A DNA stretch of 64,000 nucleotides from an uncultured candidate division Zixibacteria bacterium (GTDB lineage Bacteria; Zixibacteria; MSB-5A5; UBA10806): NCBI GenBank assembly GCA_963817915.1, contig CAWFQL010000017.1, positions 32,001 to 96,000 on the forward strand. The letters run 5' to 3'. The notes below the pieces were generated by a model. The model saw only the letters and a program-made list of their open reading frames with translations. It was not told the DNA's origin and made no database searches. Position numbers and translations under genes: made by a program. Positions 33,892 through 53,959 of the stretch are shown here, piece by piece. Numbering within the stretch: position 1 is the first letter of the stretch; every line of letters begins with the position of its first letter.

Positions 33892-33922
33892 GTTGCGTGT
33901 CAAAGCTTGCTTTGACCGCAAC
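33892..33922 (+). repeat. Left REP flanking the RAYT gene
   Basis: GTTGCGTGTCAAAG-CTTG-CTTTGACCGCAAC, a palindrome with one bulged base. Confidence 0.85.
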
Positions 33923-33931
33923 CTTTAAGCC

Positions 33932-34483
33932 ATGAAAAGAAGAAGAAATTTAATAGATGATTCAATTAATCCGATTTTTATTACCACCACTATTACAAAT
34001 TGGATCCCAGTGTTTGGAATTAATGATCTATGCCTTGAAGCACTCCAAATCTTCAACAAGCAATGCGAGGAACTGAAGACAAAGGTCTTCGCCTATGTTT
34101 TAATGCCGAATCATTTTCATTGTATTATTCAATCATCTAACAAGGGTGATGTCTCTTTATTAATGCAGAGATGGAAAAGCCTAACCGCAAGAAAGATTAT
34201 CGCATATTGTTTACACAACAAACGTGATTGGTTGAATAGATTTGCTAATGCGGCAGGCAAATACAAAAGGCAAAAAGATGAGTCTTATCAGGTATGGTTG
34301 CCTAGGTTTGACGATTTCGCTATCAGGGATGAAGATCAATTTCTAACCAAACTCAATTATATTCATGGCAATCCTTTGAAGCATAATTTAGTCGATGAGT
34401 GTAGTAAATATAAATTCAGTAGTTTCTCGAACTATCATGGTGGAGATAATTCCTATATTAAAATTACAAAATTCAGGGAGTAG
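33932..34483 (+). mobile_element. REP-associated tyrosine transposase (RAYT/TnpA-REP, HUH Y1 family)
   Basis: FITTT, AYVLMPNHFH (HUH), VW.PRFDD..IR, LNYIHGNP (catalytic Tyr), YKFSS; flanked by inverted palindromes. Confidence 0.88.
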
Positions 34484-34487
34484 TTGG

Positions 34488-34518
34488 ATTGCGGTCGAAG
34501 TAAACTTCGACACGCAAT
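34488..34518 (-). repeat. Right REP flanking the RAYT gene, inverted relative to the left one
   Basis: ATTGCGGTCGAAG-TAAA-CTTCGACACGCAAT, which reads TGCGTGTC..GACCGCA on the minus strand. Confidence 0.85.
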
Positions 34519-34607
34519 AAAGAATTCTAACCCCAAACCCCACTTCTCATAGGAGAGGGGAGAGTCACATTCGCTTGTTGTGGTGAGGTAATTAATGAAA
34601 GGATATT

Positions 34608-35045
34608 ATGAAATGGATCACACGTTCTAATGTCAAAGTCGATCGGGTTGCGTGCCCATGGCTGATAAAAAAAATCATCGACCCCAAGGCCGAATTCATC
34701 TTTGTGCCTAAGGAGCAGGTTATGGAAACAGCCGCGAAAGAGGGCGCGATCCCATACGACTACCCCGATGTGGAATTAGGGCATCACGAAGGCAAATGCA
34801 GTTTCGAGGCGATTGTGGCGAAATATCAGATCAAAGACCCGGCGATTCTAATGCTGGCGCAGATCGTGCATGGCGCCGATGTCTCCAATGATTTATATGG
34901 CCGCCCGGAGGCTCCCGGCCTGGAGGCGATCGCCCATGGTTTCGCCATGTTAGGTTTGAAGGATGATCACGAGATTCTAGCGAAGGAGTTTATTGTTTAC
35001 GATGCTCTCTACGCCTATTGCCAAAAAAAGATAAGCGAAAAATAA
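34608..35045 (+). CDS. Chromate resistance ChrB C-terminal-domain protein
   Basis: MKWITR..KVDRVACPWLI..IDP.AEF, H..GKCSFE, IVHGAD, PEAPGL, YDALY. Confidence 0.85.
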   Translation: MKWITRSNVKVDRVACPWLIKKIIDPKAEFIFVPKEQVMETAAKEGAIPYDYPDVELGHHEGKCSFEAIVAKYQIKDPAILMLAQIVHGADVSNDLYGRPEAPGLEAIAHGFAMLGLKDDHEILAKEFIVYDALYAYCQKKISEK

Positions 35046-35055
35046 TAATATATAA

Positions 35056-35253
35056 TGCGAGTCAGGGCTTGCCCTGACCGCCCCAAACCTGTCATTCCGC
35101 ATCCGTCGGTCGCCGGACTGAAGACAGCTTGACGCGGAATCCAGTCACATTATCGTCGGGTCAGGCGACCCGACGACATTAATTGGGTGGCAGTCGTACT
35201 CGACTGCCCCGAAGATAAGACGCCTTAGGGGCAGCCAGGGATGGCTGCCGCCC
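35056..35253. repeat. Mosaic REP cluster of four families
   Basis: TGCGAGTCAGGGCTTGCCCTGACCGC (35056-35081); GTCATTCCGCA[26-nt insert]CTTGACGCGGAATCC (35091-35142); CGTCGGGTCAGGCGACCCGACG (35154-35175); inverted doublet GGGTGGCAGTCG..CGACTGCCCC / GGGGCAGCCA..TGGCTGCCGCCC (35185-35253). Confidence 0.88.
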
Positions 35254-35271
35254 AGCGGTACAAGATTTCTT

Positions 35272-35691
35272 TTACACCAATTTCGCGTTCAGTTTTATTT
35301 CAACAGCCGCTAATGCCTGCGAGACCGGGCATCCCTTCTTGGTGGCCTCAGCGATTTCCATAAACTTCTTGTTGTCGATGCCCGGGACATTGGCGACTGT
35401 GTCGAGCTCAATCAATGTAATCTTGAATCCTTCGGGAAGTTTATCCAGATACACCTTTGCTGTCGTCGTCACATTCTTGGGTGTGAATCCGGCTGTAGCC
35501 AGCCCGTGCGACAACGCCATCGAATAGCATCCGGCGTGCGCGGCGGCGATCATTTCCTCGGGATTGGTGCCCTTGCCATTCTCGAAACGTGATGTGAATG
35601 AATACGCGCCCTCGAAACCTCCGAATTTCACTGTCCCTTTGCCCTGGGGTAGATTCCCCTCCCATACCGCATTACCTGTTCGAATCAGCAT
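35272..35691 (-). CDS. osmC: OsmC family peroxiredoxin
   Basis: W.G.L..GKG, YSF.SRFE, GTNPEEMIAAAHAGCYSMALS, KKGCPVS. Confidence 0.92.
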   Translation of the reverse strand: MLIRTGNAVWEGNLPQGKGTVKFGGFEGAYSFTSRFENGKGTNPEEMIAAAHAGCYSMALSHGLATAGFTPKNVTTTAKVYLDKLPEGFKITLIELDTVANVPGIDNKKFMEIAEATKKGCPVSQALAAVEIKLNAKLV

Positions 35692-35795
35692 AATTATCTC
35701 CTTGTTTTCTGAATCATATAATCATTTTTCCATAGAGTCAAAACCTTAATATGGAGCAGGAGGTTCCTGAAAGGGCACGATGCGAAATCTACCCA

Positions 35796-36079
35796 AAGCT
35801 TGTCATTCCGCACTTGTTGCGGAATCTTGCGTGATATATTTTCGGTTTTGAAATCTATTATTTGTATTCGAGCATATGAATTTAGATTCCCGCATTCGCG
35901 GGAATGACAATGTGGGGAAGCTTGTCATTCCGCACTTGTTGCGGAATCTTGCGTGATATATTTTCGGTTTTGAAATCTATTATTTGTATTCGAGTATATG
36001 AATTTAGATTCCCGCATTCGCGGGAATGACAATGTGGGGAAGCTTGTCATTCCGCACTTGTTGCGGAATCTTGCGTGAT
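35796..36079. repeat. 122-bp tandem repeat (two full units plus a partial third) of a GTCATTCC palindrome doublet
   Basis: Palindrome A GTCATTCCGCACTTGTTGCGGAATC at 35802, 35924 and 36046; inverted palindrome B GATTCCCGCATTCGCGGGAATGAC at 35885 and 36007; the two full units differ by one C/T. Confidence 0.95.
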
Positions 36080-36099
36080 CCTTTTCAGTCGAAAAAAAA

Positions 36100-36384
36100 T
36101 TACAATTCATCATATAAGTCATTCCATTGAGGATTAGACCTTTCAATTGTATTGATCTTCCATTGTCTCCGCCATTTCTTCATACGTTTTTCCCGTTGGA
36201 TCGCCGAATACACATCTTCGGTTGCTTCGAAATATACAAGTTTATGAATATGATACCTTTTTGTAAATCCATCAAAAAGGCCATTCTTATGCTCGTATAC
36301 TCGTCTTTTAAGATCGTTGGTCATTCCAACATATAAAATGCCATTTTTAGCGCTTGCCATTATGTAAATGTAATAGGTTTTCGT
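36100..36384 (-). CDS. Small stand-alone GIY-YIG nuclease family protein; the expected start codon reads ACG
   Basis: YYIYIMAS..LYVGMTNDLKRRVYEHK..GFTKRY..LVYFE..AIQREK.MKKW.R.WK..IE..NP.W.DL; the ORF-track extension to 36435 merely translates palindrome B. Confidence 0.88.
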   Translation of the reverse strand, partial: TKTYYIYIMASAKNGILYVGMTNDLKRRVYEHKNGLFDGFTKRYHIHKLVYFEATEDVYSAIQREKRMKKWRRQWKINTIERSNPQWNDLYDEL

Positions 36385-36401
36385 ATAGCCAAATAAAATT
36401 A

Positions 36402-36465
36402 GATTCCCGCATTCGCGGGAATGACAAGGTAGCAAAACCTGTCATTCCGCATTTATTGCGGAATC
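36402..36465. repeat. Palindromes B and A' upstream of the GIY-YIG gene
   Basis: GATTCCCGCATTCGCGGGAATGAC (36402-36425), GTCATTCCGCATTTATTGCGGAATC (36441-36465); a decayed B at ~36900-36924. Confidence 0.92.
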
Positions 36466-36471
36466 TATCTG

Positions 36472-36834
36472 TCACTGTATCCTGATCGGATTTCCGGAGC
36501 CTCTGAAAATAAAATACGCGGCCGCAACCAGGCACAAAGTCGCCCAGAGAAAATCGGTCTTGATCTGCTCTTTCATATAAACAATCGAGAATATCGCGAA
36601 AACACACATCGTAATAATTTCCTGAATCACCTTCAATTGCCCGAGCGAGAAATGCTCACGTCCGATACGATTTGCCGGCACCTGCAGGCAGTATTCGAAA
36701 AACGCCACTCCCCAACTGAGGATAATTACAAAATATAATGGTTTGCTCCGAAAATCCTTCAGATGCCCATACCAGGCATATGTCATGAATAGATTCGAAA
36801 AAGATAGCAATACTATGGTTGTCAGCCCAGTCAT
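36472..36834 (-). CDS. Small DMT-superfamily membrane protein (DUF486-like)
   Basis: SNLFMTYAWYGHLK, SWGVAFFEYCLQVPANRIG, QLKVIQE; RBS GGAGG. Confidence 0.88.
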   Translation of the reverse strand: MTGLTTIVLLSFSNLFMTYAWYGHLKDFRSKPLYFVIILSWGVAFFEYCLQVPANRIGREHFSLGQLKVIQEIITMCVFAIFSIVYMKEQIKTDFLWATLCLVAAAYFIFRGSGNPIRIQ

Positions 36835-36959
36835 ATGTTGTCCTCCAAGTTATTGCGGGATAATTCAAATCTGATAAAATTCGTTTTATTAGCGAATTTG
36901 GATTGCTGTTTTCGCGGGAATGACAGACAACTTGTCTGCCGCCTTGATATGGTCTTGCT

Positions 36960-37843
36960 TTAAACTTAATAGTAAATCACCACTTAGATTGCTGTATTGC
37001 GTCCCAATATTGGTTAGAATGAATCTTCGTTTTTGAAATCGATATAGAATTGGTCTTTACCTTTAATATTCGAGGGCCAATAAGCTACTCAAATAAGCTA
37101 TCTACAAGATCCATCCTGTTCGCATAAAGCATAATTGAAAATTACACGGATAAAATCAGTCGAGGGAAATAAATTTCTTTTGCTAGGGGGTCGTAGTCAG
37201 CTGTTTGTGCTATCATAGGTATTCCAATATAACGCAAATCCTCGGCCGCTCTATTCACTATATAATTCGAAAATTGAAAATTAGCTATTCTGTATTTTTT
37301 GCCGTCCCATTTCCAGATTTGCAGAGGGTGGGGGATTCTGCGCGTTGTTTCTTCCAACAAGTGAACCAGGTATCATAAAATATGATCTCGGGAATCGAGT
37401 CCGTATCCAAATCCGCAAAATCAACATGTGCTCGATCAAAAAATCGACTATCCTTAATTACAATAGAATCGCCCACAGAATAGACATATACATCAGCGCA
37501 GCAATGCTGGCCCCCGTCATTACATTGGAAAATAATTTCCTTTATTCCATCGGAATCAATATCACGACAATACTGATGTTGGATTCCAGATGAGCGGTTT
37601 TCATTGAAGTCGTAAAGCCTAACGAATTCATCCTGTATGTGCTTAATTATTGTATCTCCATTAATTATTTTGAGATCATAAGGAAAAAGCCGTTCGTCAT
37701 AAATTCGGCGATAACTTAAGAATCCGGTATAATTATCTATATTAAAAGTATCTACTGCAACTGTCTTAAAATCAAAATATCATTGTTGATGGATCAAAGC
37801 AGGAAACCAAGATCATAAGTGTAGTATTATTGTCATAAATCAT
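36960..37843 (-). pseudogene. Fragmented hypothetical gene (several frameshifts); boundaries approximate
   Basis: Colinear minus-strand fragments DIDSDGIKEIIF..GGQHCC..FADLDTDSIPEIIF..P..IWKWDGKKY in different frames. Confidence 0.45.
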
Positions 37844-37894
37844 ATTTCCTACGCCGTCAGAAATCCCTTCCGACGGTGACGTTGGCCATTCTCC

Positions 37895-39208
37895 CTACTT
37901 CACCTTCGCGCCTATCATCTCCACCAACTCCGCGATTTTGTGACGGGTCTGCTGCATGCTGTCGCGCTCGCGGACTGTGACGGTATCATCCTGCAAGGTC
38001 TGGCCATCGACCGTGATGCAATACGGCGTGCCTGCCTCATCCATGCGTCTGTACCGACGGCCCACAGCGCCGCCATCATCGTAGAAGACTTTGAAATGCT
38101 TCTTGAGATCGTGATAAATTTTATCGGCTACTTCCGGCATGCCATCCTTTTTCACCAACGGGAACACGGCCGCCTTGATCGGCGCAATCTTCGGCGATAA
38201 CGCCAGAGATACCCGCTGTTCGCCCTTGACCTCTTCCTCGCGATAGGCATCGACCAGACATACCAGTGTCGAACGGTCGGCACCGGCCGAGGTTTCGATT
38301 ATAAAGGGAATATATTTCTCATTGGCTTCCTGATCGAAATAGCTCAAGTCCTTGCCGGACGCGTTGGCGTGGCGTGAGAGATCAAAGTCGGTGCGGTTAT
38401 GGATACCCTCGATCTCTTTCCATCCGAATGAAAACTCGTATTCGATATCATAAGCGGCCTTGGCATAATGAGCCAACTCGTCCTTGCCATGCTCATGCCA
38501 GCGAAGCTTCTGCGTATTGATGCCGATTTCGACATACCATTGCCAGCGCTGTTCTTTCCAATAGTCGAACCATTTCTGGTCTTCGGCGGGCTTGACAAAA
38601 AACTGCATCTCCATCTGCTCGAATTCGCGCGTGCGGAAAATAAAATTGCCGGGCGTGATTTCATTGCGGAAGGCCTTGCCGATCTGGGCAATCCCGAATG
38701 GCACTTTCTGGCGCGATGGCTGAAGGACATTGAGGAAATTAACATAAATTCCCTGAGCGGTCTCGGGGCGCATATAGACAATCGCCGTTTCATCCTCGAC
38801 CGGCCCCATGAACGTTTTGAACATCAGATTGAACATACGCGGCTCTGTCAGCTCGCCGCCGCAATCGGGGCAGGCCTTGGTATCGATCTGATCGGCTCTG
38901 AAACGATGCTTGCATTTTTTGCAATCGACCATCGGATCGGTGAAACCCGCTATATGTCCCGACGCTTCCCAGACCTTGGGATGCATTAGAATCGCGGCAT
39001 CGAGACCCTCGATATCATCGCGGCGGTGAGTCATCGCCTCCCACCAGAAACGTTTGATATTATTTTTCAATTCGACACCCAACGGGCCGTAATCCCAGCA
39101 TGAGCCGAGTCCGCCGTATATTTCGGATGATTGGAATACGAATCCGCGTCGTTTACAGAGCGATACGATTTTTTCCATCAATGGGTCGGTTGTGATTTTC
39201 TTTGCCAC
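37895..39208 (-). CDS. glyQS: Glycine-tRNA ligase (homodimeric type)
   Basis: [55 protein letters not shown]. Confidence 0.96.
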
Positions 39209-39256
39209 GATTATCTCCTAAAGTAAGCGATTATTTTTCCATGTTAACGGCGCGTT

Positions 39257-39476
39257 GCGTCGGTTACGGCGACCCAACGCCACGAATCAAATGGTTTGAA
39301 ATTTGCGTGTCAGGGCTTGCCCTGACCGCAAAACATCATTCTCAGCGTCATTGCGAGGCCGCCAAAGGCGGCCGAAGCAATCTGTGGGTAGCCCATCCTT
39401 CAGATTGCTTCGTCGCCCGGCAGCTGCCGGACTCCTCGCAATGACCATGTCGGGCGAGGGAACCTCGCCTGACTAC
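39257..39476. repeat. Mosaic REP cluster between recO and glyQS
   Basis: TGCGTGTCAGGGCTTGCCCTGACCGCA (39304-39330); doublet CGTCATTGCGAG..GAAGCAATCTG / CAGATTGCTTCG..CTCGCAATGAC (39346-39445); GTAG-type REP on the minus strand (39448-39476). Confidence 0.9.
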
Positions 39477-39500
39477 AGGAATTTATCCAATCTTTCCACA

Positions 39501-40292
39501 TCATTCATGCCTGCCGAAATCGATCAAGGCCTCGAGGAATTTAAACGATTTCAGGTTGCGGGGCAAGCCCAGATGATACCCCGCGAATGATAATATCACC
39601 TCGGCCGCCTCTTTGCCGGTGCGTTTGTCTATGATAATATTCGCGATTTCGGTCAATGGCATGGATTCCATCTGATGCAGCAGTTTTAAAGCAGATTCGG
39701 AAATCATGGCCGTCGGTTCATCCGGCTCGATACATTTGACACAGATCAGCCCGCCTCGTTCGACCGAGATATGCGGCTTTTGGGATTTATCATTGAATTT
39801 TATCTCACTGCCGCATGATACACACGCGTTCAATTGCGGCGCGCAGCCTTCAATGGCAAGCAATCTCATCAACGCGCTCCAGAATAAAAGCCCCGATGAT
39901 TCCGATTTTGATAATTGCAGCGACTTGAAATACTCGAATGTCAACATGAATGTTTGCTGATGGGGTTCTTCGGCGTGCGATATTTTATCGAGTATCTCAC
40001 ACCAGGCCGAGGCGAAACCGTATTTGCGGGGATCGAATGTCAGTCCTCTAAAGTCTTCAATCAGCGATGCGCCGCTTATAATTCCGAGCTCTGTTGTCTC
40101 CTTTTTATAGAAATCGCCTTCAATCAGATTGAATAATTCAATTTTGCCCGTGAGCTTGGATTTTGGCTGAGAGATCCCCTTGGCGACTCCCTTAATTTTG
40201 CCAAGGTCTCTGGAGAAAAAAGTAACCACCCGGGAGGATTCCCCCATCCGGGTGGCTCGTATTATAAATGCCTCAATTTTGAAGCGGCTCAT
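39501..40292 (-). CDS. recO: DNA repair protein RecO
   Basis: GESSRVVTFFS...GKI.GVAKG, zinc finger CVSC...CVKC, LKS..FL C-terminus. Confidence 0.9.
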   Translation of the reverse strand: MSRFKIEAFIIRATRMGESSRVVTFFSRDLGKIKGVAKGISQPKSKLTGKIELFNLIEGDFYKKETTELGIISGASLIEDFRGLTFDPRKYGFASAWCEILDKISHAEEPHQQTFMLTFEYFKSLQLSKSESSGLLFWSALMRLLAIEGCAPQLNACVSCGSEIKFNDKSQKPHISVERGGLICVKCIEPDEPTAMISESALKLLHQMESMPLTEIANIIIDKRTGKEAAEVILSFAGYHLGLPRNLKSFKFLEALIDFGRHE

Positions 40293-40302
40293 CGGATGAA
40301 CA

Positions 40303-40665
40303 CTATCGTGCCCGAGCGGCTCTAACAGAATCGGTCGGCACGAATTGGATTACATTCTGATCCGGGCGGGCATAGCCGTATTTCTGGACAGCATATTTCT
40401 GGATATATTCGGGATCGTTTTTCATTTTATCGATTTCCCAGAGAGCATCCTGCCGTTCGAGCTTGAGAACAAGAATATCTTTCTCCAATTTTTCGATCTT
40501 TTTAGTCAATACCCACATCCTGAAAAATCCGAACTCTCCCCAGAAAAATGATATTGTCAGAAATACCACGGCCACGGTAATCGCGAACATTTTGAATTTT
40601 GATTTGAATCCGGGGCTTTTGACCCGATTGGAAAATCGTTTTGTAACTCTCGGATAATCCGCCAT
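40303..40665 (-). CDS. Septum formation initiator (FtsB/DivIC family)
   Basis: TM helix, coiled coil, DPEYIQKYA...GYARP; directly downstream of eno. Confidence 0.8.
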   Translation of the reverse strand: MADYPRVTKRFSNRVKSPGFKSKFKMFAITVAVVFLTISFFWGEFGFFRMWVLTKKIEKLEKDILVLKLERQDALWEIDKMKNDPEYIQKYAVQKYGYARPDQNVIQFVPTDSVRAARAR

Positions 40666-40669
40666 ATGT

Positions 40670-41980
<1,311 letters not shown>

Positions 41981-42000
41981 TCAATTTTTCTAACAATTCA

Positions 42001-42028
42001 ATTTTATCATCAATTATTGAATAGTCAA
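42001..42028 (-). promoter_or_regulatory. Candidate eno promoter TTGACT-N16-TAAAAT
   Basis: agtcaa at 42023-42028 and atttta at 42001-42006 on the + strand; GGGAGG RBS upstream of eno. Confidence 0.5.
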
Positions 42029-42120
42029 TGGATTTTTGAAATCCAGTTTCTAAAGCGACCGTTATAGTTATCGGATGAAAAAAGTTAAAAGAGATTAATT
42101 ATATCTAAGGCAATCATTGC

Positions 42121-42528
42121 GGTGTCGAGTCGTCCGGCTCCGAAAAAACTTCGGTCGGGTGAGGCCACCCGACCTCACAAACGCAGACAATATTTGTGGC
42201 GTCGAGTCGCCTGGCCCTAAAAAAACTTCGGTCTGGCGAGTCCAAGCCTGTCTCAAACCTCTGTTTTTGCGTCATTGCGAGGAGTTCGGCTTTTGCAGAA
42301 CGACGAAGCAATCTGCGGGCGGCCTCCTTCAGATTGCTTCGTCCGCCTGCGGCGGACTCGCAATGACTTTTATGGCGGCGGAATTTGTCATGGTGACGGG
42401 TCGCTTGACCCGACACAAAAACCTCGGTCGGGTGCGGCCACCCGACCTCACAAACGCAGACAATATTTGTGGCGTCGAGTCGTCCGGCTCCGAAAAAACT
42501 TCGGTCGGGTGAGGCCACCCGACCTCAC
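42121..42528. repeat. BIME-like mosaic: ~77-bp tandem REP units interrupted by a GTCATTGCGAG doublet
   Basis: Identical 55-mers at 42124-42178 and 42474-42528; CGGTCGGGTG.GGCCACCCGACCTCAC three times; CGTCATTGCGAG...CTCGCAATGAC at 42270-42367. Confidence 0.9.
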
Positions 42529-42540
42529 GGAAGAGATCTT

Positions 42541-44689
42541 TTATGGCAGCCTGAATCTCTTTCTAATGGCCCATTCGGTACAAAGACCCAGAAGAAGGAC
42601 TATGAGGACAAACGGCATTCTAAAGAAATTAATCTGCGCCTGGCTTTCCTTGATATAGGGCGAAAGCTTTAATTGATCGGGGAATCCCGAGAAATTGTCT
42701 TTATCAAAGGCCTTGCCGCCTGTAGCGTCGGAGATACGGCGAGTCAAATCATAATCGGGTGATTTCGAGGCCATCTCCAGGCTGAATTGTTCTATTGTGA
42801 AGCTGCCATTCTTCCTGCCAAGGGTGTCATTAAATGATGTCGCCATAGCGCTGAAATCATATTTCCCTGCCGGTAAAGATGAAATATCGGCCGTATATAT
42901 TCCAATGGAAGTAGGGGAAAGGGCCGCAGATTTTAGAGGAATCTTCTCGCCGCGCGGGAAAATCGACAAGGTAACGTAGGCTCCACCTTTCGGACGCCCC
43001 GCTTTGTCATAGAGATAAGCAGTAGTTCGGACAGGCTCGCCCAATCGATAGACTTTTTGATCTGTGAGCACCTTGAACTGCTCCATCTTATCGCTTGCTG
43101 AAAGCCACTTGCTAAGATTTCTCCAGAAATCGGGAATTGCTTTGGAAATCGCTTCATCTCTTACAGATCCGAAATAACTTCTCCATAACGGGAAATCCCA
43201 TGATGGCCACCGAACGGCCCCGTTCCAATGATCCGGCGATCATTACCGGAAGCCCATCGAATGCCCCGCGTGCCGAATGACTCTCAAGCAGCACTTCACC
43301 TGTCGGGTTGATTCCGGTGACGATTTCAGTTAGAGGCGGCAATGAACGCCATATCTGGACGCTGGCCTCGGGATCATCATTGAGCATTACTGCCGCGTGC
43401 TGCTTTTGGGTAGGCGACGGTTCTACAGAGAAATCATTGGATATGATATCGGGTTTTTGAAATTTAATGGGCAAAATATCAGCATACTGGCTGAGATATG
43501 TAGAGCAATCATTTCCCGCGATATAGACAAACGATCCGCCATTCTCGATATAATTTTTGAGGTCAGTAGCGTTTACCCTAAGCGATGCCGGAGAAGAATC
43601 GATAATAAAAACGATGTCATATTGTTTCAGTCCGTCAAGACCCCGAGGAGTTCCGGGATCGGAAAATCTGCCTGCGGCCGATTGATAAACAGCATCAACC
43701 TGAAATTCGTCGAATTTTCCCAGAGCCTGCTTGAGAAATTTGAATTCCCAGTTTAGTTTTGAAACTCCGACAAATATTTTTATTTTGCTTTTTAATATTC
43801 TCATCGCGAATAGCCGGTCATTGTCGATATTATTACTCTCATCCGGAAGAATCGGAGTTGAGACAGTATATTCATAATCGCCCTCAGCCGGGGCCTTAGC
43901 CTGAAATTCGACTGATACCTTCCTGCCCTGCTCGGGCATATCGAATGATTTCTCGGCGATAACATTCGAGCCTTGTTTGAGCAATATTTTCGAGCGGCCG
44001 GGTTTTATTCCAATGGCGCTTAGCTCAGCGGTAACCTCGAAATCCTGGCCGCTATAGGCTACGGCAGGATATATGATATTATCGATCGAAAGGTTTTTCT
44101 CCTCAGTCATATTGCCGACTGTCAAAGTATAGACAGGCATATTCAATCTTGATGCAATTCCAACGGGATCGTCCCCGAGATTTTGCCTGCCATCCGTGAC
44201 AAGCATTACCGCGCCATAATTATCGATATCATTTTTTTGCCCGAATTGTTGTAGGGCTTCGGATATGGAAGTAGCGTCCCCTGTTGAATCAACTTGAGAG
44301 GGGAGCGCGGATGATTTCTTTAGATTACTGGAAAATTGAAAAATTATATATTCGGATTTTATCTTGGTCAGAGCAGAATTCGCAAGACTATCGGCGAGGC
44401 TAATTCGTTTGACCCCATCTTCGGAGACTCCCATGCTTTTGGAAGTATCAAAAATAACGGCCAGCTGCGGTTTTACGATTTTGGATGAGTATAGATTTAT
44501 CAGCGGCTCTATAAGGAGAATTCCCAAGAGCAAAACCATTAACGCCCTGAGCGACGCCAGGACTATTCTCCAACCCTTTTCAAGAGGCGGATAAGTCTTG
44601 ATATAAGATAATATCCCGACTGCGATGCCTATAATGCCGATTAAAGCGTATAAATACCAATATTGGGATAGTATCTGGATATTCATCAA
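42541..44689 (-). CDS. Membrane-anchored vWA / glutamine-amidotransferase-like domain protein, frameshifted near 43090-43200
   Basis: Two N-terminal TMs, DTSKSM and LVTDG (MIDAS-like), Ig-like segment, WEFKFL; the C-terminal ORF ends in the typical EWAIRKR. Confidence 0.75.
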
Positions 44690-44709
44690 TTAATATAATT
44701 ATTTAGGTT

Positions 44710-44748
44710 AAAATAAAGCGCCACTTTGATTAAGACCATCAGTGGCGC
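44710..44748 (-). terminator. Candidate terminator after the polyprenyl synthase gene
   Basis: GCGCCACT..AGTGGCGC stem followed by TTTATTTT on the minus strand. Confidence 0.55.
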
Positions 44749-44773
44749 GTGATTCGATATATCTATCATTATT

Positions 44774-45733
44774 TTATCTATCTCTAACTGCGGCCAACGT
44801 GGCCAATTCCTCTAATGATCTTTTCATCGGCAAGTCATCAATCGATCTCACGATGTTGATCGCTTTTTCAACGAAACCGCGCGCCTTTTGTTCCGCGTAA
44901 ACAATTCCGCCATTATCTCGAACAAATTGTACTACTTCGGATATATCGTTATTCGTAGAATCTCCAAGGATTCCCTTGAAATGACTCTTGGCGTGGCTGT
45001 TACCATTTCGCATGGCGTAAATCAATGGCAATGTAACCCAGCCTTCCCGAATATCCGATCCAAGGCTCTTGCCGGTTTTGCGGGTATCGCCGATCAGATC
45101 GAGAAGGTCATCGGTAATCTGGAATGCCATCCCGATATTTTCGCCGTATTCGCGAAGGCCGCTAAGTACTTTGCCATTCTGCCCGGAACAGATTGCACCC
45201 GCCTCGGCCGAGCACGAGAAAAGGGATGCGGTCTTATCGGCGATAATATTCAGGTAAGTTTCTTCGACGATATCAAAATTGCCGGTATAAAAAACCTGAT
45301 TTAGCTCTCCAATCGATACACGTTCGGTGGCTCTTGAAAATGACGCCAGCAATCCGGGCATATTGGCTTTCACAAGCAAACCGAATGACTTGGCAAATAG
45401 ATAATCGCCCATCAGGACCGCGACCAGATTATTCCATTTGTTGTTGGTAGTCTCACGTCCGCGGCGGACATTGGATTCATCGACTACGTCGTCATGCAAG
45501 AGTGTCGCGGTATGTATAAGCTCAATGGCCAGAGCCGAGTTTAGCGATGATTCGTTGAGCTGGCCGGATGTTAGAAATACCAGCGCCGGCCGGAGCCGTT
45601 TGCCCGACGCGCCATATAAATGATCCGTTATCTGACGGATAATCGTAGAATCGGTCTCAAGAGTCTTTTTCAGCTCTATTTCGAATTGCTCTAATTGATT
45701 GGATACTGAAGAAAGAGCTTTGGAAAAATCCAT
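44774..45733 (-). CDS. Long-chain polyprenyl diphosphate synthase (IspB/HepT-like)
   Basis: GKRLRP, LLHDDVVD..RRG, GDYL, KTASL, FQITDDLLD. Confidence 0.92.
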   Translation of the reverse strand: MDFSKALSSVSNQLEQFEIELKKTLETDSTIIRQITDHLYGASGKRLRPALVFLTSGQLNESSLNSALAIELIHTATLLHDDVVDESNVRRGRETTNNKWNNLVAVLMGDYLFAKSFGLLVKANMPGLLASFSRATERVSIGELNQVFYTGNFDIVEETYLNIIADKTASLFSCSAEAGAICSGQNGKVLSGLREYGENIGMAFQITDDLLDLIGDTRKTGKSLGSDIREGWVTLPLIYAMRNGNSHAKSHFKGILGDSTNNDISEVVQFVRDNGGIVYAEQKARGFVEKAINIVRSIDDLPMKRSLEELATLAAVRDR

Positions 45734-45854
45734 TTTAATTCCTTAAATCAAAATTAAGCCACAAATTAGCCCACCACTTGGCTCAAAATATCGGATGCGT
45801 TATTCGATGTCAACCTTAAAGAAAAATTGAGGCTTATCGGTGTAATATCATCAT

Positions 45855-46610
45855 TTAACCAACAAGTACAGCCCCGCCGTTGACATTGAGAATCTCACCG
45901 GTGATGAAGCTGGCCCATTCCGACGCCATAAATACTATCGGGCTTGCCAATTCTCTCGGCGTGGCGGCGCGTCCTAACGGGATAAGCGAAAGATACTTGG
46001 GGCCATCGGGACTAGTTAAAGCAGGGTGGCTCATATCGGTATCGACCCAGCCGGGAGCGACGCTATTAACCCTGATACCAAAAGGCGCCAATTCCGAAGA
46101 CAATGATTTGGTCAATGATATCAACGCGCCTTTGGATGCTGCGTAATGAGAATGCATCGCCTCACCTCTCTGTCCAGCGGTGGAAGTGATGAAGATGATA
46201 TTGCCTGATTTCTGTTTTTTCATGGATGGGACAACTGCGGATGTAGTATAGAAACAGCCCTTTATATTGATATCGATTGTGCGGTCAAGTATGTCATCGG
46301 TCATTTTCTCGATAGCGGATTCGGTCCAGATACCGGCATTATTGACGAGAATATCGATCTTGCCGAATTCATCCAATGCTTTTTTGACCATCGACTCGCA
46401 ATCCTGACGTTTCCCCATATCGGCCTGAATAATCAGGCATCGGCGGCCGAGTTTTTCAATCGATGATTTGACTTTCCGGGCGGCATCAGGATTTGTGTAA
46501 TAGTTGATGGCGATATCTGCTCCCAATTCGGCGAAAAGTATGGCTGCTTCGGCACCGATTCCCCTGGAACCGCCGGTGATTAGCACAACCTGATTTTTGA
46601 AATTTATCAT
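45855..46610 (-). CDS. Short-chain dehydrogenase/reductase (FabG-like)
   Basis: TGGSRGIG, LVNNAG, YAASK, VAPGWVDT. Confidence 0.9.
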   Translation of the reverse strand: MINFKNQVVLITGGSRGIGAEAAILFAELGADIAINYYTNPDAARKVKSSIEKLGRRCLIIQADMGKRQDCESMVKKALDEFGKIDILVNNAGIWTESAIEKMTDDILDRTIDINIKGCFYTTSAVVPSMKKQKSGNIIFITSTAGQRGEAMHSHYAASKGALISLTKSLSSELAPFGIRVNSVAPGWVDTDMSHPALTSPDGPKYLSLIPLGRAATPRELASPIVFMASEWASFITGEILNVNGGAVLVG

Positions 46611-46649
46611 TGAATTCCTTTCATTAATTTCACATTCGAGGTCAATTTA

Positions 46650-46934
46650 TCATGTTCGAGAGAGTCTCTCCACCGATTTTTTCACTTCCGCCGCTAACGG
46701 CTCGAATTCTTCTTTGGTGAAGCTTTGGATTTGATTTAATCGGCGCACCAGGTCTTTGTTGTTGAGAATCCAGCGGGCGACCTCGACTCCCTGCTCCCAA
46801 ACCATCATGTGGAGAAATTGATTCAGTAACGGCCCCATAGGTTTACCATCGAGGATTTCATTTACGGCAGAATCGGCTTTTTTAACTGTATTGAGGAATA
46901 GCTGCCAGGAATCTTTAGGTAATTGGTAATCCAT
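46650..46934 (-). CDS. Hypothetical protein
   Basis: 94-aa ORF with AAGGA RBS, codirectional with its neighbours. Confidence 0.6.
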   Translation of the reverse strand: MDYQLPKDSWQLFLNTVKKADSAVNEILDGKPMGPLLNQFLHMMVWEQGVEVARWILNNKDLVRRLNQIQSFTKEEFEPLAAEVKKSVERLSRT

Positions 46935-47135
46935 AACAATCCTTTCAAAACATATTTAAGCAACAATTACTAAAATTAACAGTAGCGTGTTATAGTTCCG
47001 GCAACGGAATATGATAATGATTATGCTAATAGATATAAACCGCGAGGCACAGATTTATATTCATGCCTGCGAATAGAATTTCTGATTTCTTTATCCTGTC
47101 GTTTCTCATTTTATTTCGTCTGCGACAGGATTTTT

Positions 47136-47780
47136 CGTCATTTGACCGCGCCACATTAAATCCGCCATCAGGCGGATCCAAAATGTGGCGCTGGATCCCA
47201 GGATCCAAATCGTCACATTGTCCGGCTGTCGCCGGACGAGAAAGCGGGGCCCCCGTCCTTCCACCTTTCGGGGGTTTTCAAAACAAATGCTGAGTGAACG
47301 TGTTTTTGAGATTTGAATTTAGGATGTCGGGTTTCTCATCCGTCATTTGCCGGATTGTAAACTCGCTTCGCTCGTTCGGAACGCCGACCTACTGCTCCCA
47401 TTGGCTGCTGCTCGCAAGATTCCGCGACAAGCGCGGAATGACAAAGCAGGGGACAGGAGGGATGCCTGACGCACGCTTGGAATATAAAGAAAAAAAGTGG
47501 CAGGTCACGCCCGTCTTCGACGGTCTACGACCTGCCATAACTCATATTATTGTAAGGGCGGGTTTGAAACCCGCCCCTACGGAGATATTTGTGGTTTTGA
47601 CAACTGGGATGGATTCCGCATGGAGCCCTATTAATTCCCGCGACCGACGGAAGCGGAATTTCAGGACTGGGGTTTGATGAATCAAACCCCTACAGCGCTA
47701 TCGGGTTTCTCATTCGCTTCGCTCGCTCGGAACGCAGAGCTACTGATCTCGCAAGATTCCGGCTCGGGGGCCGGAATGAC
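47136..47780. repeat. Large mosaic of nested palindromic repeats
   Basis: Nested hairpins at 47136-47211; two related composites at 47324-47442 and 47701-47780; TGGCAGGTC..GACCTGCCA (47498-47537); GTAG-type REPs at 47552-47580 and ~47669-47693. Confidence 0.88.
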
Positions 47781-47817
47781 ATGGAAGTGTTTGGTGGGAC
47801 GTCTACCGCCCATATAA

Positions 47818-49930
47818 TTATTTTAACAGGGTAAGCTGAATACTTTGCGATTGATCGCCTGATTCGAGCCGGGCGAAATAGATACCTGACGCGAATTCTG
47901 ACGCGTTCCAGATAACACTATGCTGACCGGCGTCCTGAATGCCATCGACAAGCAGCGCGACCCGCTGGCCCAGGATATCGTAAATCGAAATATTAATCGA
48001 GCCGCTTTGTGCCAATGAATAATCTATCGTTGTGGAGGCATTGAAGGGATTCGGATAGTTTTGGGATAATGTGAAATCCGAAGGAATTGGCCCGGGATCA
48101 TCGATGCCGATCAAAGTAAATCTTAAAATAGATAAGGCTGTGTTATCGGCGACAAACGAGCGATTGCCAACTAGGTATATTCCGGATGCTGCTCCGGGAG
48201 TCGCAAACGATCCGGCGGAAGTTGGAATCGATGGATTAATAATATTCACTATCCGAAGCCCGGAATTATTATCCGCTATATACGCAAATCCGCCAGAGAC
48301 ATTTATGCCGTAAGCGGCATCGGGGAGATCGAAAGTGCTTTGCAAAGACGGATTTGCGGGATTGCCGATATTACAATTTTGAGAGAGCTATTGTTGGTCA
48401 AATATGCAAAACTGCCCGAAACAGCAGATCGCAGCGAATTGTGCCTGTCAGGCCCAGACTCCCCGTGAGTGAAGGGCTGGCAGGGTTCGATATATTGACA
48501 ATCTGCAGGCCCGTATTTTCACAAGCCATGTAAGCGTAATTACCGGACACGAAAACACCCACCGCCGCTGATGAGGTCGAATATCCTCCCACAAATGACG
48601 GGCTGGCTGGATTGATTATGTTTATTATTTGAAGTCCCAATGATCGATCCGCGATATACGCATAGACTCCCGATATCTGAACATCGACAGAAGCGTTCAT
48701 GGCACGGCTGCCGACTAATGTGGGAATGGCCGGATTGGAAACATTAATAATAAGCAGGCCGGAATTATCGGCTGCCATGTAGGCGTAATTGCCGAAAGCC
48801 GCGACCTTTTTGGCTGAATTTGGTGTCCCGTAACGGCCAACAAAGAAAGGGCTGGCCTGATTGGCAACATCGAGAATCTGGAGCCCTACGGGGCCATCGG
48901 CCACATAGGCATAATTGCCCGAAACAAAAACACTCTTCGAATAACCCTGATTGGGAGTGAGATAGCTGCCCACAAAAGACGGGCTCGATGGACTCGAAAC
49001 ATTGATGATTTGTAATCCTGTGTATTGATCGGCGATATAGGCACTTGATGCCGAAACGAAGACACGATAAGCCAGGCCATTGGTGTCGAAGGTACCGGTT
49101 AATGAGGGACTAGACGGCGTTGATATATTTAGAACTTGCAGACCTGAAAGACCATCGGAAATATAAGCGTAATTGCCGGAGACAAATATGTCTGAGGCTT
49201 CGCCGGGCGTATCGCGGCTTCCCACGAATGCGGGATTGGCCGGGTCTGAAATATTTATGACTTGAAGGCCGGATGAACCGTCGGCAATATAGGCGTATGA
49301 GCCTACAACAAAGACCGCATAGGCATTTCCGGGAGTAGAACGGCTTCCTACAAATGCAGGGGCGCCTGGATTGGAAATATTAATGATTTGCAGGCCGGAG
49401 GAACCATCGGCGATATACGCGTAGCTGCCGGAGACATAGATGCCTGTCGCTTCGCCGGGCGTGTCGCGGCTGCCTGTGAATGATGGGTTAGAGGGATTGG
49501 AAATATTAATTATCTGCAGCCCCGATGCGCCATCGGCAACGTACGCGTAATTCCCCGAGATATAGACCTGGGATGCTTCACCGGGCGTATCGCGGTTTCC
49601 GACAAAAAATGGGTTGCCCGGATTCGCGATATTTACAACCTGCAATCCTGAGTAGCCATCGGCGATAAAGGCATAATTGCCAGATATATCCAATCCTCGT
49701 CCGACACCCTGGAGGGCGAATTCTCCGGCCAATGACGGGGCCGATGGATTGGAAATATTCAAATTCACCAGGCCGAAATCGTACAGGCAATAGGCGTAAT
49801 TGCCCGCGATTTTGGCGTCAACGGTCATTCTCCAATTATATGAGCCGACCTGGACGACATTCTGAGCCTGAAGTATTCCGGAGCTTAAAAGTATTAATAG
49901 GAATGCGACGCCCAATAATCTATTTTTCAT
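47818..49930 (-). CDS. Secreted LVIVD-repeat protein with FlgD/T9SS-like C-terminal domain, frameshifted near 48350-48420
   Basis: Many 42-aa GNYAYVADG.SGLQIINISNP repeats (126-bp period visible at 49197/49449/49575); distal ORF has QNYPNPFN..YDILGQ..ASGIYF. Confidence 0.85.
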
Positions 49931-50038
49931 TTTTCCTCCGGTATTTGAAAATCACTCGAAAATCAAGTTTCAAGACAATCATAGATAAGAACATCAAATT
50001 ACCCTTTTTAGTTTCAATTCATAGATAAAAGCACGGAA

Positions 50039-50414
50039 GGGTTCAAAATTTTGAACCCCCTACGGCGGCATTCGTTATAGTTGCAGGCGGGTTTGATAAA
50101 TCAAACCCCTACAATCGCATTTTTATTTTTGTAGAGACGCAAGATTTTGCGTCTCTACCGGTGATAATGAATTACATATCGGCAGGATTCCAGTAGCCCA
50201 AATCTCGAAGAGATTTGGGAACACGACCCCAAAACCACGGGGGATTTTGGGCTACGGCTCCGACCGCCCATAGTAGGATGCGGTCAGGGCAAGCCCTGAC
50301 TCGCAGGAAAACGCCCATAGTAGGATGCGGTCACAGTAAACTGTGACACGCAGGAATAATGCCAACCTTCGGATTGCTTCGTCGTCCGGCAGCTGCCGGA
50401 CTTCTCGCAATGAC
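50039..50414. repeat. Mosaic REP cluster
   Basis: GTAG/CTAC-tagged palindromes at 50039-50063, 50089-50112, 50131-50158, 50193-50255; 47-bp tandem carrying the RAYT-type REPs (50279-50305, 50326-50352); GATTGCTTCG..CTCGCAATGAC (50372-50414). Confidence 0.9.
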
Positions 50415-50487
50415 CGGAAATGGGGTTTTGAGACAGACTAAGGGATTCATTGACTGCGGCAATAAGCTATGTAAATTGTATAATCGT

Positions 50488-51989
50488 TTATTTGATATAG
50501 ACGAGCTTGATGGTCTTTTGGTTTTGGGACGCTCTTGCTCTGGCGAAATAAATGCCTGTAGAGACTCTATTTCCCATAGCATCCTGGGCGTCCCATTTTA
50601 TTTCTCCCTCCTTTGCCCCAATCAAATTAAATGTCCGTACTTGTCTGCCCATAAGATCATATATTCCTATTTCCAAATCACCTCCTTCCGGATTGCTAAA
50701 TGTTATCATTGTATTTGAATTAAATGGATTCGGATAAGCGGCCATACTTAAATCACTGGGGATATTAAGGTCGCCATAATCATTGATCCCAGTAATATGC
50801 TCGTTGCGAAGATAGTAGTCAGTTGCCGCTATCATGTAGCGTACTCTATCGACCAGGCAATGCAATACGAATCGCATCTCCCTCGTATGAATAATCTAAG
50901 GCTGGAGATCTTTCGATGATTTCCATTGAACCAGTAATTACTTCTGGAGTTGTCCATGATACTCCCCAATCCAATGATTTTGAATACATGATTTTAGGAT
51001 AACTGCAGCCAAATGGCTGACCATCGTTCCAAGGCTACGTAGAGGCATTCATCTAATAATATCCCGGATGTATGCCAGCCGGTTTGAGTATTTGTTAAAC
51101 GCGATTCCGGCAGCCAGCTATTGCCGTTGTCAGTGCTGATACGGGCAAGAATATCTCGCCATAATACCAAAGCAATTGCTTCCATATTTATGGTCAAACC
51201 AAGTGGTAATAATATGGCCATTTGAATCTGAGCGGATGCTTCCGGCAATTGTGAGGCGGCACCATCGTCGATGAAACGCTATTCTTGCCGTCCATCTTCT
51301 TCTCCAGTTAAGGCTTCTTCGATAATAGACTTCGATATTCGACGATCCATCTAACATACCCATTTCATAAATCACGTGAAGTTGGCCGGCCGAATAAAGA
51401 TATTGGGAGGAGTAAGGACATCCCAGGCAATTGGTTCCGCGACCGAGCTATCTCCCCAGGTCTCGCCGCCGTTAAAGCTTGTGAATACCAATATATACGC
51501 ATTGGTATTATTCGAAACCAAACAAGATAAAAACAAGGTATCTCCGTTAGCCGCCAACCTTGGATATTTAAGCAATGGGTTTAGGCGAGTATGAAACACC
51601 TGATGAGGCGCGCTCCAGCTTTGCCCGCCATCACTGCTGGAATTATGAAAGACCTGTACTGTGGCGTTTCTGAAGTAAGCAACCCAACTTATGTGGACTT
51701 TGCCCTTGGAGTAAATAATATCGGGCATTTGACTTCCGTAAAATGTATCGGGCGGGACAATCGGCTCCGACCAGGTATTACCATTATCATAAGAATGGAC
51801 ATAGCTAATAGCGGTGGGAATTGAACCGACGGCATGGATTGTATCTCCGACCGCTGCCACCCGCGTATCCATCCAGCCGATATAGTCGGTTACCTGCATC
51901 GGCTCTGTCCATTGGGCATAAGCCGTTGCAGTTGACAGGGTCACGAAAGCGAATATTGAAATCAAGGACTTGGGCACACAATTCCTCAT
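50488..51989 (-). pseudogene. Secreted BNR/Asp-box repeat protein with FlgD/T9SS-like C-terminal domain, multiple frameshifts (errors or decay)
   Basis: Signal peptide from ATG 51989; SYDNGNTW, SSDGGQSW, SFNGGETW and STDNGNSW boxes in successive frames; terminal AYPNPFN..WDAQD..STGIYF. Confidence 0.7.
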
Positions 51990-52061
51990 TGTTATTTGAC
52001 GAAACTTCTTGCTGTAGTATAACAGAATTTTGGGGAAATGGTATTGTTTATTTTGCGAGAA

Positions 52062-52476
52062 GTCGTCAGGAAGGGATTCCTTACGGGGCGGGGAAAGGAG
52101 GGCACAACATGTTGTGCCCCTACAGGAATAATCGTTCTTTTGCGGGCGGGTTTGATAAATCAAACCCCTACAATCGCATTTTTTATTTTTGTAAAGAGCA
52201 AGATTTCGTTCGGAGACGCAAGATTTTGCGTCTCTACCGGCAATAGCAGTAGGGCAGGAGTCGAAGACTCCTGCCGATCACGGCTTTATGGCAGGAGTGT
52301 ACCACTCCTGCCCTACTCCGACTACAGCGCGGAAAATGGCGGGCAAGATTCCGCATCAAGCCGATTTAGGCCCGCCGTGGTGGGTGCGGAATGACAGGTA
52401 TTACATTTCGGGCGGGTGTGGAGACTACCTTCAGATTGCTTCGGCGACCGACAGGAGCCGGACTTCTCGCAATGAC
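52062..52476. repeat. Mosaic REP cluster
   Basis: GGGCACAACATGTTGTGCCCCTAC (52100-52123); near-copy of 50081-50161 at 52140-52240; inverted GTAGGGCAGGAGT doublet (52249-52316); GATTCCGCATCAAG[24-nt insert]TGCGGAATGAC (52347-52395); CAGATTGCTTCG..CTCGCAATGAC (52432-52476). Confidence 0.9.
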
Positions 52477-52591
52477 ACGCCAAAAGGATTTTGCGGGAAT
52501 ATAGGTGTGTTTGACACCGGCCAAAGAATCATAATTTGATTGCGTCCCTTAATCTTATCTGGTAATTTTTGAATTGGATGGGAGGGCTGAT

Positions 52592-53445: not shown

Positions 53446-53628
53446 TGAAATTCGCTCCTATGAAATTCATAAGCTATTAGATAGCATGGTTCTAAATCAT
53501 TTTATTAGACGCCTGATATCTTCAAATCCGGGAACCCTGGCGTCTGATTTAGGTTTACAATCAATGATGAATGGGTTATATTAAACGCTTTGTGAGAAGA
53601 GAGATTAAGGAAATTAAGGAGGAATGAA

Positions 53629-53949: not shown

Positions 53950-53959
53950 GTAAAAGGAG

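Follow-up and report, generated by a model that had tools for sequence, protein, structure and literature searches.

Hairpin modules nested at the loop of a probable Ssn-type palindromic repeat in an uncultured Zixibacteria bacterium

The DNA analyzed here (the window) is a stretch of 64,000 nucleotides from contig CAWFQL010000017.1 (positions 32,001 to 96,000 of the forward strand) in the assembly GCA_963817915.1 of an uncultured bacterium of the candidate division Zixibacteria. It carries a short, oriented palindromic repeat that occurs in an empty form, with a 5-nt loop between its arms, and in a filled form, in which a GC-rich mini-hairpin and a 10-nt tail are nested between the same arms. 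Several empty copies lie beside a gene for a small GIY-YIG nuclease, in the company of an inverted sister repeat. The features that bear on this repeat are as follows.

35091-35141, + strand: filled repeat, type B, composed of GTCATTCCGCA, a 26-nt insert, CTTGA, and CGCGGAATC
35091-35101, + strand: GTC and 5' arm of the type B copy
35102-35127, + strand: its 26-nt insert, mini-hairpin 1 TCCGTCGGTCGCCGGA (35102-35117) followed by the tail or mini-hairpin 2 CTGAAGACAG (35118-35127)
35128-35132, + strand: its loop remnant, CTTGA
35133-35141, + strand: its 3' arm plus C, of which the first base, C, mismatches the 5' arm
52347-52395, - strand: filled repeat, type A, composed of GTCATTCCGCA, a 24-nt insert, CTTGA, and TGCGGAATC
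52361-52384, - strand: the type A insert, hairpin CCCACCACGGCGGG (52371-52384) and tail CCTAAATCGG (52361-52370)
36100-36369, - strand: gene for a small, single-domain, Ssn-like GIY-YIG nuclease, 89 residues from an ATG (Pfam GIY-YIG, E = 9e-16)
35802-35826, + strand: empty repeat, loop CTTGT, first of three copies at 122-bp spacing
35924-35948, + strand: empty repeat, loop CTTGT
36046-36070, + strand: empty repeat, loop CTTGT, antisense orientation, immediately downstream of the GIY-YIG gene
36441-36465, + strand: empty repeat, loop TTTAT, on the upstream side of the GIY-YIG gene
35885-35908, - strand: sister repeat GTCATTCCCGC GAAT GCGGGAATC, resembling dRS3/NTS, 4-nt loop
36007-36030, - strand: sister repeat of the ATTCCCGC type
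36402-36425, - strand: sister repeat of the ATTCCCGC type, directly upstream of the GIY-YIG gene, sense orientation

The initial annotation of this DNA had placed both inserts at one junction, GCA^CTTGA, in equal polarity, and reading of the sequence bore this out to the base. It had also taken the 10-nt tails for unrelated sequence, which proved mistaken because the tail recurs in each insert family and is able to form a second mini-hairpin (CTC-AAGA-GAG, CTG-AAGA-CAG, CTCC-AAG-GGAG, or CTGC-AAG-GCAG). The tail CCTGAAGCAG of one type A copy resembles the type B tail listed above. The type B copy lies within 35059-35250, where five different hairpins are found between convergent genes that end at 35045 (+ strand, ChrB_C domain) and 35272 (- strand, OsmC), and the region of the type A copy (52200-52480) is intergenic, with one gene ending at 52163 and the next starting at 52574. 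The empty form is GTCATTCCGCA CTTGT TGCGGAATC at 35802, 35924, and 36046, where it belongs to three 122-bp units (35802-36070) that end at the GIY-YIG gene, each unit being a head-to-head pair with an inverted ATTCCCGC-type sister repeat. Matches to GTCATTCCGC with at most one mismatch numbered 13 in the window, compared with a shuffle mean of 5.31 (13 was reached in 0 of 100 shuffles), and ATTCCGC-N0-30-GCGGAAT matched 5 times versus 0.06 expected.

All copies of the repeat were then tabulated across the genome (G000), a metagenome assembly of 3.33 Mb in 22 contigs with an estimated completeness of 93.9%. The spacing of exact arm pairs, with gaps of up to 150 nt admitted, was bimodal, at 7 nt in 19 and 29-35 nt in 16 of the 41 pairs. 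A wider regular expression (tag, 8-nt arm, and reverse-complement arm with at most one mismatch) returned 95 hits, and filtering for recognized arm types with gaps of at most 6 nt or of 29-33 nt discarded 24 as non-family hairpins, leaving 50 empty and 21 filled copies (4 of type A, 11 of type B, and 6 of type C) in two classes.

5-nt-loop class, arms ATTCCGCA and near variants: 23 empty; filled with type A (4 copies, 24 nt) or type B (11 copies, 26-28 nt)
Sister class, arms ATTCC-N-GC: 27 empty; filled with type C (6 copies, 26-27 nt, GCCCGTCAAGGGCCGGGCCnCTGACnG)

The inserts are recurrent multi-copy module families, not two unique events. They sit at fixed junctions: types A and B abut the 5' arm and type C abuts the 3' arm, with a fixed polarity in 15/15 copies of A and B and 6/6 copies of C. 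Modules A and B are confined to the 5-nt-loop repeats and C to the sister class. Within its class, type C is hosted by different arms (CTGC in 3 copies and CAGC, CCGC, and CGGC in 1 copy each) and different arm/loop combinations (CTGC/GAAA, CAGC/GAAA, CCGC/GAAG, and CGGC/CCCCGA), each of which is also found empty; type A is hosted by the loops CTTGA (n = 3) and TTTAT (n = 1), both also found empty. The borders of the three types have in common only an A preceding the unit and a G as its last base, with no further target motif, and types A and C were not found outside the repeats when up to three mismatches were allowed. The ratios of orientation relative to the local GC skew, which is noisy and often near zero, were 25:25 for empty copies, 2:2 for A, 3:8 for B, and 0:6 for C.

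Further members of these families in the window include one of two decayed B-like copies found in addition to the catalog, the other being at C6:195012.

47418-47442, - strand: empty repeat variant, arms ATTCCGCG/CGCGGAAT, loop CTTGT
47612-47664, - strand: degenerate type-B-like filled copy ATTCCGCT TCCGTCGGTCGCGGGA ATTAATAGGGCTCCA TGCGGAATC, 5' tag decayed
47755-47780, - strand: sister repeat of the ATTCCGGC type, empty, loop CCCCGA

Two tandem arrays elsewhere in the genome show the modules present and absent in otherwise matching DNA. The array at G000:C9:355840-356166 consists of three double-repeat units (u0, u1, and u2) in near-perfect alignment. The first repeat of u0 lacks the 27-nt type C module that is present in u1 and u2, and its second repeat carries a 24-nt type A module that is absent from them. 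Both differences are clean indels, of 27 nt and 24 nt, and otherwise a few substitutions set u0 apart from the other two units. The array at C12:580000-580480 contains one empty and two type B units with about 45 nt of right flank in common; what separates the empty unit from the other two is a clean indel of 26 nt at GCA^CTTGA. There was no duplication at the borders of types A and B, and GC or GCC is found at both borders of type C; the 24-27-nt inserts do not show the combination of terminal inverted repeats with target-site duplication that marks miniature inverted-repeat transposable elements or insertion sequences. On the basis of these clean presence/absence differences and the occurrence of modules across different arms and loops, it is quite likely that modules turn over as discrete units, gained or lost with exact borders. 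The type C module is ∼90% alike beside the loops GAAA and CCCCGA, which are not alignable and are each fixed within a subfamily, so that one insertion that later diverged is an unlikely origin.

Across 200 other genomes of the class, 13 instances of the exact repeat were identified, 12 in short form and one filled. In a related genus (G005), a third and different insert, a 20-nt perfect palindrome, occupies GCA^CTTGA about 260 bp from the Ssn-like gene of that genome. The type B module was not detected in any of 40 relatives; in the same 40, the type C core gave a single match (G007) in an apparently coding, nonrepeat context that we took as chance. This distribution favors gain of modules in this lineage, and repeated loss is also compatible with it. 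The site-specific capture proposed in the initial annotation thus stood in part: differing inserts do occupy one junction, with discrete and precise gain or loss in the two arrays, with modules in repeats of different arms and loops, and with a third palindrome in G005. What is captured is not arbitrary DNA, however, because the inserts belong to a few recurrent module families.

These data also bear on the possibility that each repeat class received one ancient insertion, that the long form is ancestral, that whole repeats then spread with recurrent precise loss of the apex, and that types A and B are diverged descendants of one module. Such a history would fit the restriction of each module type to one repeat class, the likeness of the A and B tails in one copy, the occurrence of a 5'-arm hairpin plus CTTGA in several phyla (see below), and the GC/GCC borders around the inner hairpin of type C, a classic substrate for slippage deletion. 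We nevertheless consider it quite improbable because relatives share the short CTTGA forms (the 12 of 13 matches above), the B and C modules were not found in the 40 relatives, the module is conserved beside loops that cannot be aligned, and the A and B inserts have no border repeats for slippage.

The host repeat can be placed with high confidence among the TGTC-tagged palindromic repeats of the dRS3/NTS/Ssn-related-motif kind, because its 8-bp stem starting with AT, its 4/5-nt loop, its TGTC tag, and its short 3' tail match those of the CGTC class of repetitive extragenic palindromes (REPs) and because the GIY-YIG gene is flanked by repeats. Chenal et al. (2025, Nat Commun, PMC11893778) describe Neisseria dRS3 as part of a 28-nt oriented hairpin, NTS, which belongs to a wide class of Ssn-related motifs (SRMs) that flank small single-domain GIY-YIG genes. 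The CGTC REPs were defined by a CGTC or TGTC tag, an 8-9-bp stem starting with AT, a 4-5-nt loop, a 3-nt tail (consensus CCA), and a mostly head-to-head dimeric arrangement, with dRS3 as CGTC-1 (Di Nocera, De Gregorio, and Rocco, 2013, BMC Genomics, PMC3733652). Our 50 empty copies have a (Y)TGTC tag, 8-bp arms, and C(Y)AT or CTTG tails; in terms of the CGTC definition they show a TGTC tag, an 8-bp ATTCC... stem, loops of 4, 5, or 6 nt, and tails CCA, CTA, or CTT, and head-to-head pairing with the sister repeat is seen at 35885-35948 and elsewhere. The filled copies, at 29-33 nt, exceed the loop-length rule of that class. The oriented hairpin, the (C/T)GTCAT tag, the ATTCC...GGAAT arms, and the clustering between genes also recall NTS and the SsnA-associated SRMs.

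The layout around the GIY-YIG gene resembles the published NTS-ssnA-NTS arrangement, a small single-domain GIY-YIG gene with repeats on both sides (PMC11893778). The gene lies between repeat pairs, with a sense ATTCCCGC copy upstream and an antisense ATTCCGCA copy downstream; the open reading frame (ORF) extends to 36435 from a TTG, and the sister repeat at 36402-36425(-) is then translated as a spurious N-terminus. A homolog is present in 130 of 201 class genomes. Repeat hairpins were found within about 80 nt on both sides of the gene in 11 of the 12 loci examined, the exception (L171) being a locus where the first gene copy has a hairpin on its upstream side only, and long repeat forms directly flank the gene in L172, L173, L176, and L177. 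Comparison of the protein with PDB sequences gave no relative, and NCBIfam gave only weak matches below the cut-off. The published SRM search string, as we transcribed it (HGTCWYN(0-2)YYVSBRHN(0-5)WNVSBRGN(0-2)RNCYNB; PMC11893778), fits 14/50 empty and 0/21 filled copies, and 1/21 filled copies when its loop is widened to 40 nt.

According to the same study, Ssn proteins bind the hairpin in single-stranded DNA (ssDNA) and cut upstream of it, and the four homologs assayed cut ssDNA only, near or upstream of the hairpin and not in the loop; by our interpretation of the 37-nt and 28-nt oligonucleotides, the cut is placed 3 nt before the 28-nt motif. Ssn cleavage is characterized as sequence-specific, with no action on double-stranded DNA or RNA. 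It does not depend on the identity of the loop, which may be deleted outright or exchanged for an extension (PMC11893778). The suggestion in the initial annotation that the insertion junction is the cut site of the nuclease does not agree with this upstream cleavage (PMC11893778). Capture of small DNA pieces at such a cut site would account for a nuclease gene tied to the repeat and for the reuse of one junction by different inserts, but it is very improbable given the position of the published cuts, the recurrence of insert families in place of varied fragments, and the same nesting in GTAG REPs, which are tied to another enzyme.

We favor, with a probability of roughly 60%, the explanation that the inserts are nested hairpin modules in the dispensable apex of an Ssn-type repeat. 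The nuclease would recognize the repeat by its oriented 5' tag and its 8-bp basal stem, with the apical loop dispensable, and the filled repeat would retain the same basal stem with one or two extra mini-hairpins added. Inserts may be found only between the arms because the tag and basal stem are needed by the nuclease and the apex is not; such tolerance of the loop probably explains their position. By analogy with the published loop-extension experiments, the filled repeats should still be bound and cut upstream. Modules could be gained by copy-choice, in which a nascent strand would stall at the stem-loop junction of a folded single-stranded repeat, switch to another folded repeat, copy its apex, and return. 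Copy-choice is the mechanism of gain that we prefer, although this preference is tentative. Loss may occur by slippage across the inner hairpin, which is plausible for type C, with its GC/GCC sequences on both sides.

Several observations weigh against this explanation. Every step of the mechanism is inferred. No direct repeat flanks the type A or type B inserts, which disfavors their loss by slippage. Copy-choice guided by arm homology would carry the donor loop along, but modules adjoin the recipient's own loop (CCCCGA and TTTAT), and the switch points would therefore have only 0-2 nt of homology. The class-specificity of the modules also fits inheritance within a class with repeated loss. 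A filled and an empty state at one orthologous locus were not seen; in a metagenome scan based on the neighboring ChrB_C protein, identity did not exceed 78% in the 80 loci returned, and none of these has the repeat at the corresponding place. Covariation in the inner hairpins is thin, with changes on both sides in 1/16 pairs, in 2/11 sequences, and the observed values were also reached by 20-27 of 500 shuffles. No ATTCCGCA-type copy, including those in the window, fits the SRM string as transcribed, so that the identification of this subfamily as an Ssn target rests on layout and adjacency only. The estimated contamination of the assembly is 2.74%.

Hairpins like those of types A and B also occur outside the Ssn-type repeats. 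The type B core, TCCG[GT]C-N4-GCCGGA, has 49 copies in G000, and YCCGCC-N2-5-GGCGGR, near the type A core, has 54 versus 0-2 in 5 shuffles. Such hairpins lie at the apex of GTAG REPs, of the GTCATTGC...GCAATC family, and of several others, giving at least six repeat families. On one basal stem, GTAG REPs were found at 25 nt (n = 7, no apical module), 40-47 nt (n = 28, one module), and 59-68 nt (n = 9), size classes that cover the 44 of 125 hits closed by the rule used; in the last group those of 66-68 nt (n = 4) carry two modules joined by TTTACAA, and those of 59-65 nt (n = 5) are REPs running into a neighboring repeat. Both short and long GTAG forms flank the RAYT (REP-associated tyrosine transposase) gene at C16:409k (region C16:408582-409410), and of the first 21 nt of type B, its hairpin plus 5 further bases, 18 match the REP beside that gene over its apex and flank. 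Beside the type A copy in the window, at 52430-52477, a third tagged family (GTCATTGCGAG ... GCAATC) is represented by a copy with a TCCGGC-type hairpin at its apex. It is already known that short and long "complex" loops coexist among GTAG REPs, the long ones having self-complementary interiors (up to 27 bp in Bradyrhizobium), and that different families have loop types in common (PMC3733652). For CGTC REPs, the tabulated loops are 4-5 nt with odd loops remarked in three species only, and the available part of that article gives no evidence for unit-wise gain or loss or for modules common to repeats of the CGTC and GTAG types.

The repeat architecture was also found in other phyla. One genome per species was scanned for GTCATTCCGCA-N12-40-TGCGGAATC, which gave at least 127 matches with at least 106 unique fills and at least 123 loci with 12-40-nt fills between the same arms. 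The labels among the loci listed include Nitrospirota, Planctomycetota, Bacteroidota, several proteobacterial groups, candidate phyla, and one archaeal bin. A rule requiring a perfect stem of at least 5 bp left 76 of 127 fills unclassed, and DNA folding was used instead; the outer stem was kept in 99 of 106 folds of the unique fills among the matches listed. Among these same matches, 17 fills end in CTTGA (module beside the 5' arm; 5 of these are a second half-site), 19 read CTTG...A (module beside the 3' arm), and others have a central hairpin. Such mirror-image arrangements are expected if either strand of the palindromic arms receives a module in fixed polarity. In L072 and L085, different hairpins occupy one position within one genome. 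In seven loci (L054, L075, L079, L091, L092, L119, and L127) a solo 5' half-site and a spacer precede a complete repeat (GTCATTCCGCA ... GTCATTCCGCA CTTGA TGCGGAATC), and the spacer repeats the upstream flank, as from tandem duplication of the 5' half. Near-identical arms (20 specified bases) are found in more than ten labeled phyla plus the archaeal bin among the loci listed (L046-L168), which suggests either that the repeat and its nuclease have often spread together by horizontal transfer or that some contigs are mis-binned.

An assembly artefact or mis-joined repeats would be conceivable for a metagenome-assembled genome. We regard this as negligible, because the 21 filled copies are spread over seven large contigs, have unique flanks, and show family-specific variants, and the same architecture recurs in the at least 123 independent public records.

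IS200/IS605 elements and RAYT/REP systems handle hairpin DNA in single-stranded form, with precise excision and insertion, no target duplication, and fixed polarity. The modules resemble them in being hairpin-bearing DNA with exact borders, no target duplication, and a fixed polarity, and RAYT genes and REPs are abundant in G000; they differ in having no associated transposase, and the repeats here flank a GIY-YIG gene and not a RAYT gene. The modules might be 15-27-nt mobile hairpins that are cut and pasted in ssDNA at stem-loop junctions by a RAYT (an HUH tyrosine transposase) or another strand-transfer enzyme, in the manner of IS200/IS605 peel-and-paste. Consistent with such units are the exact presence or absence without target duplication for A and B, the occurrence of one module in repeats of different arms and loops, the fixed polarities given above, the mirror-image arrangements among the matches listed from other phyla, the eight Y1-transposase matches in G000, the match of type B to a REP beside a RAYT gene, and the capping of at least six repeat families by the same hairpins. 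We consider this unlikely, since no enzyme could be connected with the modules, the RAYT genes have REPs of their own and not these repeats at their flanks, the module borders have no target motif beyond the A and G, each module is restricted to one repeat class, and types A and C were never found outside repeats at up to three mismatches. To our knowledge, the units are also far smaller than any IS200/IS605 end pair. The tag of the host repeat is TGTC and not the GTAG of RAYT-mobilized REPs, and the eight Y1-transposase loci are flanked by other repeats, different at each. Both systems are named in the discussion of the Ssn study (PMC11893778).

The RAYT gene in the window has REPs of its own, a pair of the GCGTGTCAAAGC..GCTTTGACCGC type.

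33932-34483, + strand: RAYT gene (NCBIfam NF047646, E = 3.3e-29), with an inverted REP pair at 33893-33922 and 34488-34517

DNA folding of the filled forms keeps the outer stem, to which type B adds two mini-hairpins, TCCG...CGGA and CTG-AAGA-CAG, and the tail variants keep their pairing (CTC/GAG, CTG/CAG, CTCC/GGAG, and CTGC/GCAG). This retention, together with the intergenic position of both window copies within hairpin clusters, would agree with a filled repeat that acts as a functional structured RNA, or as a terminator of transcription or a stabilizer, is selected for a three-way junction, and only incidentally resembles an insertion. Such a role is improbable: the fold z-scores are weak (-1.2 and -0.7), covariation is thin as described, and copies lie on either strand relative to the neighboring genes. 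A search of Rfam over 34000-54000 gave two matches (E = 0.05 and E = 0.22), far below the gathering scores and neither of them on the elements.

The dRS3 repeat is the integration target of Neisseria filamentous prophages, whose integrase uses a conserved CT motif (Kawai et al., 2005, and Meyer et al., 2016, as cited in PMC7058167). A CT can be read between the dRS3 arms from the consensus (PMC7058167), and the A/B site in our repeat lies directly 5' of a CT. There, a whole phage inserts with its own integrase, whereas the units here are 24-27 nt with no flanking CT duplication, and an excision footprint with a duplicated CT core was not seen in the module borders. No gene (Pfam PF01548) of the IS110 type, to which the Neisseria phage enzyme belongs, was found in G000 (94% complete), and an IS110-type recombinase was rejected as the inserter on the grounds that there was neither a PF01548 match nor a CT duplication.

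The host repeat is of a kind already known. The published SRM string has a 0-5-nt loop, and nested loop modules are not described in the available part of that article (PMC11893778). More widely, our literature search found no nested loop modules for Ssn-type repeats, supplements, which may list long forms, not being included; a 2026 preprint (10.64898/2026.09.22.753630) uses SsnA repeats only as a benchmark in the part available. Ssn-type repeats are present in hundreds of copies in many bacteria and were linked to a nuclease only in 2025. Search patterns with 0-5-nt loops undercount them and miss whole subfamilies, because many copies carry 12-40-nt apical modules. For Ssn enzymes as ssDNA tools, the natural loop-extended substrates would indicate which insertions the recognition hairpin tolerates in vivo. 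The turnover of units and the sharing of modules between repeats served by GIY-YIG and by HUH enzymes may point to an unrecognized process acting on folded ssDNA. A wider proposal, which we regard as doubtful, is that GC-rich 15-27-nt hairpins are autonomous ssDNA passengers at the stem-loop junctions of unrelated repeats (Ssn-type, RAYT-type REPs, and tRNA-derived stems) across bacterial phyla. If this were true, they would be the smallest mobile DNA units known and a second selfish layer inside selfish repeats.

A few further observations concern the surroundings of these repeats. The hairpin cluster at 35059-35250 is a mosaic of repeat families resembling the bacterial interspersed mosaic elements (BIMEs) or the neisserial intergenic mosaic elements (NIMEs), and spurious ORFs in 35802-36070 translate the repeats (e.g., ...SFPRMRES... 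and ...CHSRECGN...). The other four small GIY-YIG genes of G000 lie away from these repeats, at the 3' ends of tRNA-Met and tmRNA. In G000:C16:333700-334800 (L010-L012), a unit composed of a small GIY-YIG gene and a partial tRNA 3' copy occurs three times in tandem after tRNA-Met, and in the partial copies a TCCGCC-N5-GGCGGA hairpin replaces the 3' half of the anticodon stem. In G000:C12:473800-474250 (L013), the tmRNA gene has downstream of it a GIY-YIG gene and then a duplicate of its own 3' end. These genes look like small nuclease genes that insert at the 3' ends of tRNA and tmRNA.

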